A stretch of DNA of 64,000 nucleotides, from NCBI GenBank assembly GCA_037445065.1, contig JBBILD010000011.1, positions 42,633-106,632 of the forward strand, given 5' to 3'. Position numbers: made by a program. This DNA comes from Myxococcales bacterium (GTDB taxonomy: Bacteria > Desulfobacterota > Binatia > HRBIN30). Below, piece by piece: positions 30,851 through 33,800 of this stretch (positions are counted from its first letter, which is position 1; each line of letters opens with the position of its first letter).

Positions 30851-33800
30851 TCATTTCTCGATCACGGCGAGGATGTCTTCCTCACGCATGATCAGGTAGT
30901 TCTCGTCGTCTACTTCGATCTCACTTCCCGCGTACTTACCAAATAAAACGCGATCCCCGGGCTTTACCGAAAGGGGCGTGCGCTTGCCGTCTTCGTCCAA
31001 CCGGCCAGGACCGACGGCCACGACCTTGCCTTCTTGCGGTTTCTCTTTCGCCGTGTCGGGGATGATAATCCCGCCCTTTGATTTTTCCTCTTCTTCGATC
31101 CGCTGGACCAAGACGCGGTCTTGCAAGGGTCGAATCTTCATAGTCCTCCTCCTTTCGGGTCTCGTCGTAGATGAGAAGATATCGGGTTCGAGAAAACCCG
31201 GCGGCAAGCTAACGGGCGGCAAAAATCTGTCAAGCCCGTTGTACGGGCGAGAGTCCTCCGCCGGCGCAAAGCTGCGCTTTGAGGTTCTGGATCACGCGGG
31301 CGAGTTCCGGATCCTGTTGCTGCCGTTGCTCAGCGCAGCGAACTGCGTAGAGGACGCTCGTATGATCCCGCCCTCCAAACTCTTGCGCAATCGCCGTTAG
31401 GGAAGCCCCTGCTACCGTGCGAGCCAAGAACATGGCAACCTGCCGGGCGATGCAAGCAATCCGGTCGCGTCGTTGCGAGCAAAGGTCTTCGACAGTGATC
31501 CCGTAATAATCGGCAACATGACGTTGGATCGTGGCCACGTCTGGAGGACTGGGTGCGACCGCCACCCCTGGCGCTCCCAAGGCTTCATCCAGCAAACTCG
31601 TGTCAATGGACCGGTTCAAGAAGGAGGCCAACGCCAAGACCCGGTTCAAGGCTCCTTCCAACTCCCGCACGCTCGGTCCGGCACGCAGCGAGATGGCCTC
31701 GAGGAGTTCCACCGGCAGTTCGACTCCCCGTGCGGTGGCCTTGCTCTGCAGGATCAGGACGCGCATCTCGGGCGTCGGCGGACGCATGTCTGCGATCAGT
31801 CCGCCTTCGAACCGGCTCCGTAACCGCTGTTCCAAGCGGGCGATGTTTTTCGGGGGTTCATCCGAGGTCAGCACCACTTGCCGGCCTTCGTGATAGAGGG
31901 CCTCGAAGGTGTGGAAGAACTCCTCTTGCATGCGATCCTTACCCGCCAAGAACTGCACGTCGTCGAGGATCAACGCATCCAGCCGCCGAAAACGATCGCG
32001 GAACTCGGGCATGCGGTCATTCTTGAGTGCCTGGATCAAGAGGTTGGTGAACGTCTCCGCGGACAGGCAGCCAATCCGCTGCCGCTTCGACTCGCGCAGC
32101 AGCTCATGGCCAATGGCGTTGACCAAATGGGTTTTTCCGACTCCTACGGAGCCCCAGAGGAACAGGGGATTGAAGCGAGTCGCGCGGCCGTTTGTGGCCA
32201 CCGCACGGGCCGCCTCGTATGCGACCTCGTTGGCGGCGCCCACGACGAAGCGCTCGAACGTGTAGCCGGGGATCAGGCGGCCGACCGCCGGTCCCCGTGG
32301 CGCCCGCTCCACCGTCGTCGCGCTCGCAGTCGGGGGCGCGGTCGGTGTTGGCTCGGTATGTCGCGCGTCACTCGATTGCCGACTCGGGCCCGGACTCACC
32401 ACGACACGAATGACGGGAGGCGGACTGCCGGGCTGCCGCAGCGCAGAAGCGATGGCGCGCAGGAAATGCCGAGACACCCAGTCTTGAAAGAAACGGTTCG
32501 GCACTTCCAGGCGATAGCGCCCTTGCTCTTCAATGAGCCGCGTGGGCTTGATCCAGGTCTCGTAATTCCGCTCGCCGATCACCTCCTTCAGATGCGCCAG
32601 ACTCCCACTCCGTTCCTCTTCCATCTGCATGCGCGCCTCCGTGCTCTTCGAAGGTTTCCAGTCGGCCGGCGCAGCGCCTTTCCACACCTGGGGAAAATTG
32701 CCCATCTCCATGTCGGAGAAGAACTTTCCCGTTTTCCACACAAACACATCCACAGCCTGACCCAACCACACCCACCCCTACTGCGTTCCTCTTCCTCGGG
32801 GCGGTGCGCTACCGACGTTCCGTTGGTGATCATCCTACGACCAACGATGCCGTTGACGGCAAGGGCGCCTCAAGTAGTGGGTGCTGCCAGGGGAGTCAAG
32901 AATCCGCGGGCCGCTTGCGGATGTACTTGAAGTGACGAGAAGATTTTCACGCTCAATATATCGCCTCCCGATACGCGTTTTGGAGGGCTTCGGGAGCTGC
33001 TCCGGTAAGTGTGCGTGAGACAAGAGAATTTTGCGCGCGCACTAGCGAGAAGTGGCGCCGTGCGCTTCGGCGAGCGCGATGGCGCGCTGTAAGTCGCCTG
33101 CGTTCAACGCGCCACGTACGAGCCGCCCGTTGATAAATAAGGTAGGCGTGGAGTTTACGCCCAGTTCTGCGCCGAGGCGGCTGTCGTCTTGCACACGCTG
33201 GCGCACTGCCGGGTCCTCGAGGCACGACTCGAAGCGGGGTACGTCGAGGCCGAGGTCGCGCGCCAAGCGAGAAAACAAGTCCCCATGGAGCTGGCGCTGG
33301 TGGGCAAACAGAAGGTCGTGGTACTCCCAGAATTTACCTTGCTGGCCGGCGCACTCGGCTGCAACTGCTGCACGACAAGCCATGGAATGAAACGGAGACG
33401 CCACTGCGGGGTTGCATTCTGAATTCAAAGGGAAATGCCGGAAGAGCACGCGCAAGCGGCGAGGTTCACGCCGCCAAACTTCGTCCACGACTCGGTGAAA
33501 GTTTTTGCAATGCGCGCACTCGAAGTCGGAGAACTCTACGATCACTACGGGAGCATCTGGGCGGCCTCGCTGATTGCGGCCATCTAGAGGTACTGAGACC
33601 AGCGGCTGAGAAGTGAACCAATGAGAAAAGCGGGGGTCGCTTTGCAGGCTACCAGTGGGGTTCCGGCCCCGGCTGATCTCCCACCCGAGCGCCAGTGCAA
33701 GCACACCGAGCAGGGCAACTGCGGCTGCGAGCATGCCCCGGTCGAGCCCGCGGCTCTGTGCGAGCCCACGCTGGTAGCTGGGAATCAGGCCCCGCCGTAG

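Follow-up and report, generated by a model that had tools for sequence, protein, structure and literature searches.

What does the second of two complete dnaA genes do in a bacterium whose replication origin lies beside the first? The genome analyzed here (G000), from the order HRBIN30 of the class Binatia, contains two complete dnaA genes, namely dnaA1 on contig C8 and dnaA2 on contig C11 within the 64,000-nucleotide stretch, C11:42633-106632, that we call the window. Window positions are contig positions minus 42632, and not minus 32000, the offset used in an earlier note on this DNA. Models of initiation assume one all-purpose protein for DnaA-box binding, DNA melting and helicase docking. 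A class with two intact DnaAs in many of its lineages would be a natural experiment on which protomers need which domain, a question so far approached, as far as passages of PMC6127211 indicate, only with engineered mutants of E. coli DnaA. A literature search found no paper in the library covered that links Binatia or Binatota with DnaA. Judged by its sequence, dnaA2 is a genuine, old and vertically inherited second DnaA gene and not the origin-linked initiator gene, and DnaA1 and DnaA2 may share the job of starting replication.

Two full-length DnaA proteins

A search of G000 with PF00308 gave exactly two matches (C8:7789-8265 and C11:74423-74899), and both products hit the Pfam DnaA models and the NCBIfam equivalog TIGR00362, so that the earlier claim of two complete genes stands. 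The TIGR00362 score is 479.9 bits for DnaA1 and 448.3-448.8 bits for DnaA2 (cut-off 343.9; model positions 5-437 of 437 for DnaA2). The window protein has the four-domain architecture of DnaA, with DnaA_N (PF11638, 57.1 bits), a linker, the Bac_DnaA AAA+ module (PF00308, 199.1 bits) and the Bac_DnaA_C helix-turn-helix (PF08299, 81.7 bits), all above the model cut-offs. B. subtilis DnaA (8BTG) aligned to it along its full length (E = 5.8e-97), and DnaA1 and DnaA2 are 39% identical over 450 residues. Hda, the DnaA-related inactivator, is a related AAA+ module without domains I and IV; DnaA2 differs in having both, and its score with the Hda model TIGR03420 is 98.8 bits, below the cut-off of 194.8. 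The possibility that DnaA2 replaces Hda was discarded, since no Hda above that cut-off was found in any of the 61 class genomes searched, with or without DnaA2.

The dnaA2 reading frame runs from a GTG codon through 513 codons (31230..32771, minus strand), and the earlier note had both ends of this frame right. The protein that it deduced was too long, and a product of about 464-466 residues is expected. The position of the ribosome-binding site and the N-termini of the orthologues favor ATG 32630 as the start codon, or alternatively ATG 32624, which would give 464 residues. The 47 codons upstream overlap four TGTGG[AT] words and show no protein-level conservation among the orthologues, and this segment is most likely an untranslated leader rather than protein. 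The 513-residue gene call therefore needs shortening, and the two genes ought not both be named "the" initiator. The features of the locus are collected in Table 1.

Table 1. Features at and around dnaA2, in window coordinates
Feature	Position	Strand	Remarks
FG-GAP repeat protein gene	26197..29058	minus	Direct 3' neighbor of dnaA2 in the f2, f3 and f4 loci tested
groEL	29213..30835	minus	Pfam Cpn60_TCP1
groES	30851..31141	minus	Pfam Cpn10; ATG at 31141
Hairpin CGGGTTTTCTCGAACCCG with T-rich tail	31183..31200	minus	Directly after the dnaA2 stop; terminator-like
dnaA2 coding sequence	31230..32630	minus	466 residues from ATG 32630; stop codon 31232-31230
GGAGG, ribosome-binding site of dnaA2	32636..32640	minus	Precedes ATG 32630
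5' extension of the 513-residue dnaA2 frame	32631..32771	minus	Holds the DnaA boxes and the operator
Head-to-head operator TTTTCCCCA-GG-TGTGGAAAG	32678..32697	minus	Pairs a variant box with a canonical DnaA-box core; 47 nt lie between its end and ATG 32630
Three further DnaA-box-like words, same orientation	32732..32770	minus	TGTGGTTGG 32770-32762; TGTGGATGT 32754-32746; TGTGGAAAA 32740-32732
Putative promoter of dnaA2	32871..32900	minus	-35 CTTGACT (32900-32894), 17-nt spacer, -10 TACTTG (32876-32871); predicted
VKOR-thioredoxin/DsbA fusion gene	33042..34250	minus	Pfam VKOR, Thioredoxin_4, DSBA; conserved upstream neighbor of dnaA2 by synteny

The replication origin

The position of oriC, which the earlier note had left open, can now be assigned from GC skew and from boxes with trios: it lies at dnaA1-dnaN and not at dnaA2. 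Contig C3 of the near-closed relative G014 carries dnaA1 at 2.651 Mb and dnaA2 at 1.324 Mb, in agreement with the separation of 1.33 Mb on one contig reported before. Its skew is negative in all 12 of the 20-kb stretches sampled between 0 and 2.57 Mb and positive in all 8 sampled between 2.75 and 4.52 Mb, with no switch at dnaA2. The skew of contig C8 in G000 flips at about 7-8 kb, beside dnaA1, where the gene order is a hemL-like gene followed by dnaA-dnaN-gyrB-gyrA. The genome has a single DnaA-box core followed by at least five NAC trios, located in the spacer between dnaA1 and dnaN (C8:7124), and the layout of box pair, GC spacer, TAC trios and AT-rich stretch was seen between dnaA and dnaN at all 16 of the class loci displayed. 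This layout fits the basal unwinding system as passages of PMC8287927 describe it. No boxes or trios were found downstream of dnaA2 in the 12 loci examined, and dnaA2 does not adjoin oriC and dnaN, a position that is usual though not universal for dnaA. The predicted origin of these uncultured bacteria, which combines a box pair with TAC/NAC trios and an AT-rich stretch in the dnaA1-dnaN spacer, should be useful for genome orientation, for coverage-based estimates of growth rate and for annotation.

Age and distribution of the second gene

Phylogenetic analysis, absent from the earlier note, relied on "quick" tree searches with SH-aLRT as the only support measure. DnaAs of other phyla, with 31-45% identity, served as outgroups; one of them, L146, is identical to a class genome's second copy and was counted among the second copies, not the outgroups. 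All second copies formed one clade in each of three data sets (SH-aLRT 99 with 35 rows, and 95 and 96 with 15 rows each), and the sub-groups of this clade mirror those of the canonical clade. An AU test with 44 rows rejected a single clade made of the order's DnaA1 and DnaA2 proteins (delta lnL 55.4, p = 2.5e-5). By these trees, the dnaA2 paralogue is older than the order, and a duplication at the level of the order is rejected. When 19 sequences from the same phylum were added, the second-copy clade joined divergent sole DnaAs from other classes with weak support (SH-aLRT 91), a grouping that could be due to long-branch attraction or to transfer. The dN/dS values of dnaA2 are 0.11-0.33 in eight genome pairs, indicating purifying selection; in the six pairs without G000, dN of DnaA2 is 1.4-2.2 times that of DnaA1.

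The second copy was said earlier to occur in all 26 of 26 genomes of the order; the wider count is at least two PF00308 matches in 35 of 37 other genomes of families f1-f4 (34 of 36 without the unpublished G177). The genomes with a single match are G226 (85% complete) and G216 (97% complete), and the sole DnaA of G216 is of the DnaA2 type. Members of the second-copy clade are present in 13 of the 20 families sampled. Searches with PF00308 did not find a second copy in most genomes of f6, f10, f11 and f15 or in most of f9, and the gene is therefore dispensable in those relatives.

Synteny is conserved on the upstream side, where the adjacency of the VKOR-DsbA gene was confirmed and its count corrected to 24 of 29 order loci (23 of 28 without locus L013, from G177); the same gene also lies upstream in loci L079 and L080. 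The downstream neighbors vary. The groES-groEL pair noted earlier follows dnaA2 in this genome and in all five other f1 loci tested, and its adjacency is confined to that family; the FG-GAP gene directly follows dnaA2 in the loci tested from other families (one f2, two f3 and one f4). A functional link between dnaA2 and groES-groEL was rejected on this account.

Conservation of domains and residues

The earlier note described the second copy as intact, and the comparison of 30 DnaA2 orthologues from the order supports that description. The Walker A (GxGKTHL), Walker B (DD), sensor I (D), box VII (R..R) and sensor II (R) residues are kept in 27-30 of the 30, as are the R, RQ and GRDH residues of domain IV. 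K166, T167, D223, D224, D257, R273 and R322 are found in all 30 and R269 in 29, and the window protein has the motifs for ATP binding and hydrolysis together with the arginine finger. In domain IV, we take R399, D433, H434, T435 and H439 of E. coli DnaA, from the 1J1V work, to be the residues that read the DnaA box. The first four are unchanged in the alignment of DnaA2 with 1J1V; at the position of H439 DnaA2 has Tyr, a residue it shares with M. tuberculosis DnaA (chain 3PVP). A change of specificity through this His-to-Tyr replacement in the DNA-reading helix was considered and dropped, because 3PVP has the same Tyr and 10 of the 30 orthologues keep His.

Compared with canonical DnaAs (TIGR00362; B. 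subtilis 8BTG, A. aeolicus 1L8Q and 2HCB, E. coli 1J1V and 2E0G), DnaA2 is alike in its four domains and above-cut-off score, in Walker A and B, sensors I and II, the arginine finger, the ssDNA-binding Ile and the base-contact residues of domain IV, and in the Trp and Phe positions of domain I. It differs in that its gene is not beside dnaN and oriC, a place held by a separate canonical DnaA, and in forming a distinct clade with signature changes and another upstream operator. The signatures are RSRFxGGL versus RNRFEWGL in the canonical proteins of the class, PPTxEMR versus PPDxETR, and S instead of N before the sensor II Arg. In the DnaA2 of G000 itself, the N-terminal Trp found in 14 of 15 aligned second copies is missing.

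The two proteins differ in domain I. Among 12 matched genomes of the order, domain I has a mean pairwise identity of 0.55 in DnaA2 and 0.38 in DnaA1, whereas all other regions are better conserved in DnaA1. W26, F47 and W51 are present in all 30 DnaA2 sequences; F47 corresponds in the alignments to F46 of E. coli, and W26 to W27 of B. subtilis. The order's DnaA1 proteins have Trp at the W26 and W51 positions in none of 13, and no aromatic residue among those listed at position 47 (11 of 13 listed) or 48 (13 of 13). The Pfam DnaA_N score is higher for DnaA2 than for DnaA1 in each of 13 order genomes (47.8-67.3 bits versus none to 45.1). The structure predicted for DnaA1 domain I has a pLDDT of 95-97 over residues 1-80 and the same topology as that of DnaA2; judging from this model, the domain may have a new way of binding the helicase or a loader, without any need of help. 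The pattern is reversed in families f5, f7, f14, f16, f18 and f19, where domain I is stronger in the origin-linked copy (6 of 6), and a division of labor is therefore not general to the paralogue. Since related genomes are not independent, the domain-I patterns perhaps represent two or three independent evolutionary events.

The region upstream of dnaA2

The leader of dnaA2 holds a pair of head-to-head boxes whose strict motif, TCCCCA-NN-TGTGGA, occurs only once in the 3.79-Mb genome. This operator lies upstream of 16 of the 30 dnaA2 orthologues of the order (21 of 30 with a relaxed pattern) and upstream of 3 to 4 of 11 second copies in other families. It was found upstream of none of 15 DnaA1 genes and none of 28 other canonical, origin-linked dnaA genes. 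An extended form, TTxTCCCCA-NN-TGTGGAxAA, can be written for the operator, the symmetric counterpart of which would be the pair TTATCCACA-NN-TGTGGATAA.

A rescan of G000 gave the same outcome as before, in that no E. coli-type cluster of DnaA boxes was found: the E. coli consensus TTATCCACA, with at most one mismatch, has 278 sites, and no cluster of at least three within 400 bp. The relaxed core TGTGGA is needed to see box clusters in this genome. At least three TGTGGA within 150 bp occur in four places, including the regions upstream of dnaA1 and of dnaA2; the other two fall within coding genes, as a by-product of Val-Trp and Leu-Trp codons. The word TCCCCA is found 13 times in 5.4 kb of dnaA1-dnaN spacer from 23 two-copy genomes versus 3 times in 4.1 kb from 15 one-copy genomes, an enrichment that is only a lead toward possible DnaA2 sites. 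The notion that such "CCCC" boxes are DnaA2-specific sites within oriC was dropped, a CCCC-type box being present also in the origin of the single-DnaA genome G006.

The putative promoter is placed like a conserved element of the orthologue leaders, TTGACA with a 17-nt spacer and TA..A., which lies about 260-290 nt upstream. A strict sigma-70 scan gave no site in this region. Rfam had no match within 30500-34500 at E values up to 1, and the consensus that RNAalifold derived from 23 dnaA2 leaders (-3.4) was not convincing, although on inspection by eye these leaders show a local hairpin with compensating changes. At the other end of the gene, the hairpin after the stop codon looks like a terminator; it overlaps a sigma-32-like sequence, CTTGCC-N16-CCCGATAT.

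Possible roles of DnaA2

Our preferred reading, which we hold with somewhat less than even confidence, is that DnaA2 serves as an accessory DnaA, acting together with DnaA1 on DnaA boxes common to both. It would be an ATP-binding, self-assembling protein that presumably binds DnaA boxes, and transcription of its gene appears to start at a dedicated promoter and to run through a long leader. Since that leader carries the paralogue-specific box pair, the DnaA activity of the cell probably sets the expression of dnaA2. DnaA2 would most likely act in trans, as a partner subunit, on the boxes used by DnaA1 at oriC and in promoters. In such mixed assemblies DnaA2 protomers would supply the ancestral domain-I contacts, an arrangement suggested as most likely because in this order DnaA1 has replaced the domain I aromatics and DnaA2 keeps the Phe46 position. 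E. coli Phe46 is the primary contact with DnaB helicase. Passages of PMC6127211 report that F46A DnaA alone cannot bind DnaB and that it contributes to DnaB loading in mixed complexes with the wild type. G000 has a single dnaB gene. A bolder proposal for the order and families f12 and f13, which we put forward as possible and rather doubtful, is a two-gene machine in which DnaA1 forms the DNA-bound, DNA-melting filament and has abandoned the ancestral docking surface of domain I, DnaA2 enters that filament and with its canonical domain I recruits the single DnaB or its regulators, and a paralogue-specific operator reading DnaA activity sets the level of DnaA2. If true, this would be a natural hetero-oligomeric bacterial initiator.

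Several other explanations were weighed. An artefact of binning or assembly, or a duplicate in decay, is hardly credible: the G000 assembly is in draft state (46 contigs, contamination estimated at 2.4%), but orthologues in 35 of 37 order genomes, the conserved synteny, a tree congruent with that of DnaA1 and the presence of both genes on the single G014 contig refute an artefact, in line with the earlier view, and the dN/dS values, open frame and invariant motifs speak against decay. It is very improbable that dnaA2 marks a second origin or a second replicon, an idea raised by the three to four DnaA-box-like words directly upstream and by a local skew inversion in the window between 28 and 50 kb. 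The skew of C11 is positive on both sides of this dip, however, and dnaA2 lies near a local skew maximum and not a minimum; its contig carries the core genes nusA, infB and groEL, and the two dnaA genes share one contig in G014. The unswitched skew of G014 at dnaA2, together with the lack of trios or an unwinding element near the gene in the 12 loci, led us to reject a second origin.

A regulatory role deserves more weight, although we consider it on the unlikely side: DnaA2 could be a DnaA-derived transcription factor or box titrator, regulating itself too, with no part in origin firing. Its gene is away from oriC, has its own conserved operator and promoter, and has been lost repeatedly within the class, and the AAA+ lid and domain IV of the protein change faster than those of DnaA1; moreover, DnaA is known as a bifunctional initiator and transcription factor, and passages of PMC4989314 treat chlamydial paralogues as transcription factors. 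A pure regulator would, on the other hand, need neither an arginine finger nor the ssDNA-binding Ile. The domain I of DnaA2 is better conserved than its own domain IV (0.55 versus 0.515), the Phe46-type patch is kept in all 30 sequences, and outside the two dnaA promoters and the coding-gene clusters described above no TGTGGA cluster was seen in G000, nor is any regulon visible at this sensitivity. An improbable alternative is that DnaA2 acts as a stand-alone initiator of the same oriC, replacing DnaA1 under particular conditions, stress or slow growth for instance. In its favor, all initiator motifs and all four domains are intact and dnaA2 is separately regulated, and it could draw on the position directly upstream of groES-groEL in family f1 and on G216, which shows the DnaA2 type only. 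The groES-groEL adjacency is confined to that one family, however, the absence of DnaA1 from G216 (270 contigs) may reflect a gap in the assembly, there is no sign of condition-specific promoter elements, and complementary domain conservation fits cooperation better than substitution.

Comparison with known systems

The presence of more than one dnaA in a genome is already known. Acidaminococcus fermentans has two dnaA genes in tandem in one chromosome; according to passages of PMC4403523, both are in an rpmH-dnaA-dnaA-dnaN origin cluster, each with a predicted oriC, whereas dnaA2 here is about a quarter of a chromosome away and without origin features. The Chlamydiales, of a different phylum and with the paralogues dnaA1, dnaA2 and dnaA3, are another bacterial lineage with more than one full dnaA, a likeness of kind drawn from published descriptions only. 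According to a passage of PMC2878342, the copies are not tied to the GC-skew minimum; in Waddlia neither copy is origin-linked, whereas one of the two clearly is in the present case. Passages of PMC4989314 present the chlamydial paralogues as bifunctional initiators and transcription factors with a division of labor that is not known. The chlamydial passages of both papers mention neither domain-I complementarity nor a paralogue-specific operator, both of which were found here.

A functional analogue is seen in the mixed complexes of F46A and wild-type E. coli DnaA at oriC, in which, by the account in passages of PMC6127211, only a subset of the protomers needs the Phe46 patch for binding and loading of DnaB. 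By this analogy the order's DnaA1 would resemble the variant without the aromatic residue and DnaA2 the wild-type protomer. The E. coli proteins were engineered mutants of one gene studied in vitro, whereas here two natural genes, about 39% identical, would supply the presumed partners of a joint assembly.

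The second dnaA gene

DnaA2 is a real, ancient and selected second DnaA. Two genes match PF00308 (Pfam Bac_DnaA) genome-wide, bearing out an earlier note that the genome carries two dnaA genes; against the cut-off of 343.9 bits for TIGR00362, the NCBIfam DnaA equivalog, DnaA2 scores 448 bits and DnaA1, the origin-linked copy, 479.9. DnaA2 has Pfam matches to DnaA_N, Bac_DnaA and Bac_DnaA_C, aligns over its full length with the DnaA of B. subtilis (8BTG; E = 5.8e-97) and is 39% identical to DnaA1 over 450 aa. The start and end previously assigned to the reading frame are correct (window = C11:42633-106632), and the offset needs correction: 42632 is to be subtracted, not 32000. 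The length of 513 aa is probably too great. A later ATG is most likely the true start, because GGAGG lies in front of it and the 47 codons ahead of it, which contain words of the DnaA-box type, lack an equivalent in the orthologues, where the protein starts M-E/D-x-x-W.

Features at and around the two dnaA genes (window positions unless a contig is named)
Feature	Position	Strand	Remark
dnaA2 reading frame	32771 to 31230	minus	513 aa from GTG
Most likely dnaA2 start	ATG 32630 (or 32624)	minus	GGAGG in front
Gene row around dnaA2		minus	greA, rimP, nusA, ylxR, infB, DUF503, rbfA, truB, VKOR-DsbA, dnaA2, groES, groEL, FG-GAP
Hairpin or promoter	31179-31208		between dnaA2 and groES
Negative-skew block	28001-50000		~22 kb
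dnaA1	C8, ~7252-8616	minus	
Origin element (locus L001)	C8:7051-7251		outside window; differs from relatives
Box core + NAC signature	C8:7124		dnaA1-dnaN spacer

All 30 DnaA2 orthologues counted in the order (families f1-f4) retain the Walker A Lys and Thr, the Walker B Asp-Asp, the sensor I Asp, the arginine finger R273, sensor II R322, the Arg of 'RQ' and an Ile at the position of B. subtilis I190. R269 of box VII and the domain IV Arg equivalent to E. coli R399 are each present in 29/30, and the 'GRDH' motif keeps its Asp in 29/30 and its His in 28/30. The box VII signature, RSRFxGGL, has Ser for Asn and Gly for Trp relative to the canonical DnaA of the class, a form common to the second copies of other families. 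Values of dN/dS are 0.11-0.33, with dS near saturation, and in six pairs without the genome under study the dN of DnaA2 is 1.4-2.2 times that of DnaA1.

Distribution and ancestry

PF00308 was surveyed in 250 other genomes under 20 family codes (unpublished G177, G087, G208 and G213 included), counting those with at least two matches. These make up 35/37 genomes of the order, so that the two matches reported for every order genome (26/26) do not hold in the wider count. Elsewhere they are 13/13 in f7, 1/1 in f8, 3/3 in f14, 5/5 in f16, 3/3 in f18, 7/7 in f19, 6/8 in f5, 15/19 in f13, 19/25 in f12, 4/20 in f9, 1/35 in f10 (the second match being a fragment), 1/3 in f17 (both copies of canonical type), and none in f6 (0/19), f11 (0/36) and f15 (0/15). 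With DnaA2 as query, a match of 48-56% identity is among those listed for 35/37 order genomes; G226 shows the DnaA1 type only, and the listing did not extend to G124. In other classes of the phylum, 33 of 39 genomes have one DnaA match, three have two and three have none.

Among the best 150 representatives of 1.84 billion proteins, those more than 45% identical to DnaA2 are P0003, P0004, P0006, P0008 and several fragmentary or fused proteins (P0005, P0111, P0115). Some of the same 150, 585-1990 aa long, have a DnaA-like stretch at each of two separate places (P0005, P0007, P0009-P0011, P0016, P0025, P0028 and others); these are fused or tandem DnaA-type ATPases. The DnaA genes L044 and L048 of G190 (f20) are practically identical (branch lengths 0 and 0.002), and an aminotransferase gene and dnaN flank just one; the pair reflects either recent duplication or redundancy in the assembly, and neither gene is the old paralogue.

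All trees were quick searches without bootstraps. In the first, which used LG+C20 and 17 named outgroup DnaAs from other phyla, all 35 rows of second copies fall into a single clade (SH-aLRT 99) next to the canonical clade of the class (47 rows, 96), with joint support of 94, and the same inner groupings (f1-f4; f7, f14, f16, f18, f19; f8, f13; f12) recur in both. A 44-row subset gave the same picture (95, 95, 98). On this subset an AU test, for which the group was chosen after the first tree was seen, rejected DnaA1 and DnaA2 of the order as one clade (delta lnL 55.4, p = 2.5e-5). Both clades persist when 19 same-phylum sequences are added (96, 99), and the second-copy clade then groups, with weak support (91), with six divergent DnaAs, five of which are the sole DnaA of their genome. 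The family may have arisen by duplication at the root of the class or may have come from a divergent-DnaA lineage of this kind, with long-branch attraction possible in the latter grouping. Several other-class lineages (G274, G288, G269, G289, G280, G266 and others) have a very divergent sole DnaA (PF00308 E = 1e-38 to 1e-51 vs the usual ~1e-70), which sits next to the second-copy clade.

The replication origin

The position of oriC, left open in the earlier note, can now be given: it lies at dnaA1, because the skew switch and the unwinding layout are found there and nothing like the latter was found beside dnaA2 in the 12 loci searched. Twenty stretches of 20 kb were sampled along the 4.77-Mb contig C3 of the near-closed relative G014, where GC skew is negative in 12/12 from 0 to 2.57 Mb and positive in 8/8 from 2.75 Mb onward; dnaA1, at 2.651 Mb, falls between the two arms, and dnaA2, at 1.324 Mb, within the negative arm. 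In the genome under study the skew goes from negative to positive at ~7-8 kb of C8, beside dnaA1, and on C11 a local dip is flanked by positive skew. The dnaA-dnaN spacers of all 16 class loci displayed contain, in order, DnaA boxes, two boxes in tandem, a short GC-rich spacer, consecutive TAC (NAC) triplets and an AT-rich stretch, the same layout as that of the basal unwinding system described in PMC8287927. A box core followed by at least five NAC triplets occurs once in the 3.79 Mb of the genome.

At this element the trio-adjacent box is ATATCCCCA vs TCCACA in relatives, and the trios are AAC AAC GAC GAC GAC vs TAC TAC TAC. DnaA1 of this genome is itself unusually divergent and has a long branch (identity to DnaA1 of G221, 48.5%; G221 vs G171, 71%), and origin and initiator may have co-evolved. 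In G034 (f10, locus L086), dnaA is directly followed, before the unwinding element, by six perfect copies of TGTGGATAACC in tandem, at a period of 11 bp.

Complementary conservation of domain I

In alignments, DnaA1 and DnaA2 display complementary conservation of their domains. Across 12 matched order genomes, domain I is the sole region in which conservation is higher for DnaA2 (0.55) than for DnaA1 (0.38). F47 falls at the position of Phe46 in E. coli (2E0G), and W26 at that of the Trp in 'ETW' of B. subtilis (4TPS, 8BTG).

Domain I residues, in DnaA2 numbering
Position	Order DnaA2 (n=30)	Order DnaA1 (n=13)	Other-family canonical DnaA (n=28)
W26	Trp 30	Trp 0	Trp 24
F47	Phe 30	no aromatic among 11/13 listed	Phe 13, Leu 11
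F48	Phe 22, His 6	aromatic 0	Phe 20, Tyr 2
W51	Trp 30	Trp 0	Trp 26

DnaA_N scores (Pfam cut-off 24.6 bits) are higher for the second copy in 13/13 genomes of the order (47.8-67.3; origin-linked none to 45.1, with 3/13 below the cut-off) and in 4/4 of f12 and f13 (47.4-58.6; origin-linked 22.5-40.7), and higher for the origin-linked copy in 6/6 of f5, f7, f14, f16, f18 and f19 (56.2-65.9; second 23.1-44.6). Domain I of DnaA1 is not decayed, to judge from its AlphaFold model (pLDDT 95-97), which has helix-helix-strand-strand-helix-helix-strand in the same order as DnaA2 (core pLDDT 82-85). DnaA2 of this genome has Arg where 14/15 aligned second copies have an N-terminal Trp, the equivalent of E. 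coli Trp6, which is used for domain-I self-association.

Elements upstream of dnaA2

At least three TGTGGA words within 150 bp occur at four places in the genome, namely upstream of each dnaA gene and within two coding regions whose codons make the word. Some 260-290 nt upstream, the 23 aligned order leaders share a TTGACA -35 and a TA..A. -10 with a 17-nt spacer; also conserved in them are a hairpin, a first TGTGGA box and an operator, TTGTCCCCA-GG-TGTGGA(T/C)AAC, 50-55 nt from the estimated gene start in the four order loci measured. The asymmetric TCCCCA-NN-TGTGGA precedes 16/30 order dnaA2 genes and 3/11 other-family second copies in strict form, and 21/30 and 4/11 (f8, f12, f13) in relaxed form; either form is found at 0/15 order dnaA1 and 0/28 other canonical dnaA genes. 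The symmetric TC(C/A)ACA-N2-3-TGTGGA is found at 13/28 other canonical dnaA genes, 0/15 order dnaA1, 0/30 order dnaA2 and 0/11 other-family second copies. The dnaA2 operator is paralogue-specific, and, because distant families share its type, it independently backs the second copies as one gene family. From what is generally known of low-affinity boxes, the weak half-site beside a consensus half-site makes a putative sensor of active DnaA.

A leader word, AATGA(A/C)TCTTGTCGG, followed by a hairpin, is conserved ~150-250 nt upstream of dnaA2 orthologues (L004-L032, L079). The stem varies between lineages by compensating substitutions, e.g. GCCTTCC..GGAAGG vs CTTCTTCGCTCTCC..GGAGAGCGAAGAAG; Rfam gave no match for the leader region of this genome.

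Possible roles of DnaA2

The leading reading, a tentative inference, is that DnaA2 binds DnaA boxes and co-assembles with DnaA1, bringing the ancestral domain-I contacts. The genome has one dnaB gene; in E. coli, DnaB makes its primary contact with DnaA at Phe46, and F46A protomers function only when wild-type protomers share the complex (PMC6127211). It is somewhat less likely that DnaA2, with its conserved domain I, is a transcription factor or titrator only, and improbable that the protein is a stand-alone alternative initiator. A second origin at dnaA2, where the skew does not switch in G014, is very hard to credit, and the chance that a copy with orthologues across the order is an artefact is negligible.

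Extra dnaA genes are described in Chlamydiales (PMC2878342, PMC4989314) and, as two genes in tandem, in A. fermentans (PMC4403523); both, like the present genome, have more than one dnaA gene. A full-text search, with most subscription journals beyond its reach, found no paper linking Binatota or Binatia with DnaA and no literature on DnaA paralogues or a second dnaA in this group; the names Binatia and HRBIN30 are taken from the earlier note.

Gene neighbourhood

The earlier placement of dnaA2 between VKOR-DsbA and groES-groEL holds in this genome and, for the former, more widely: VKOR-DsbA lies before dnaA2 in 24/29 order loci (23/28 without unpublished G177) and at L079 and L080. The groES-groEL pair follows dnaA2 in f1 only among the loci tested (5/5 other f1 loci); in f2, f3 and f4 an FG-GAP gene comes directly after dnaA2 (4/4 with a Pfam match), and groESL is therefore an insertion in f1. 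The neighbours of dnaA1 are a divergent class-III aminotransferase gene and dnaN, as they are for the canonical dnaA across almost all of the class; the two genes beyond dnaN on C8 are taken, from ORF order, to be gyrB and gyrA.

Between dnaA2 and groES, a single stretch could serve dnaA2 as a terminator-like hairpin or groES as a promoter of sigma-32-like type, CTTGCC-N16-CCCGATAT. The negative-skew block has mostly minus-strand genes (rimP-nusA-infB ... dnaA2-groESL), with the contig positive on both sides; the skew either follows the gene strand or reflects a fairly recent inversion, since which genes of high expression have run counter to the skew around them.
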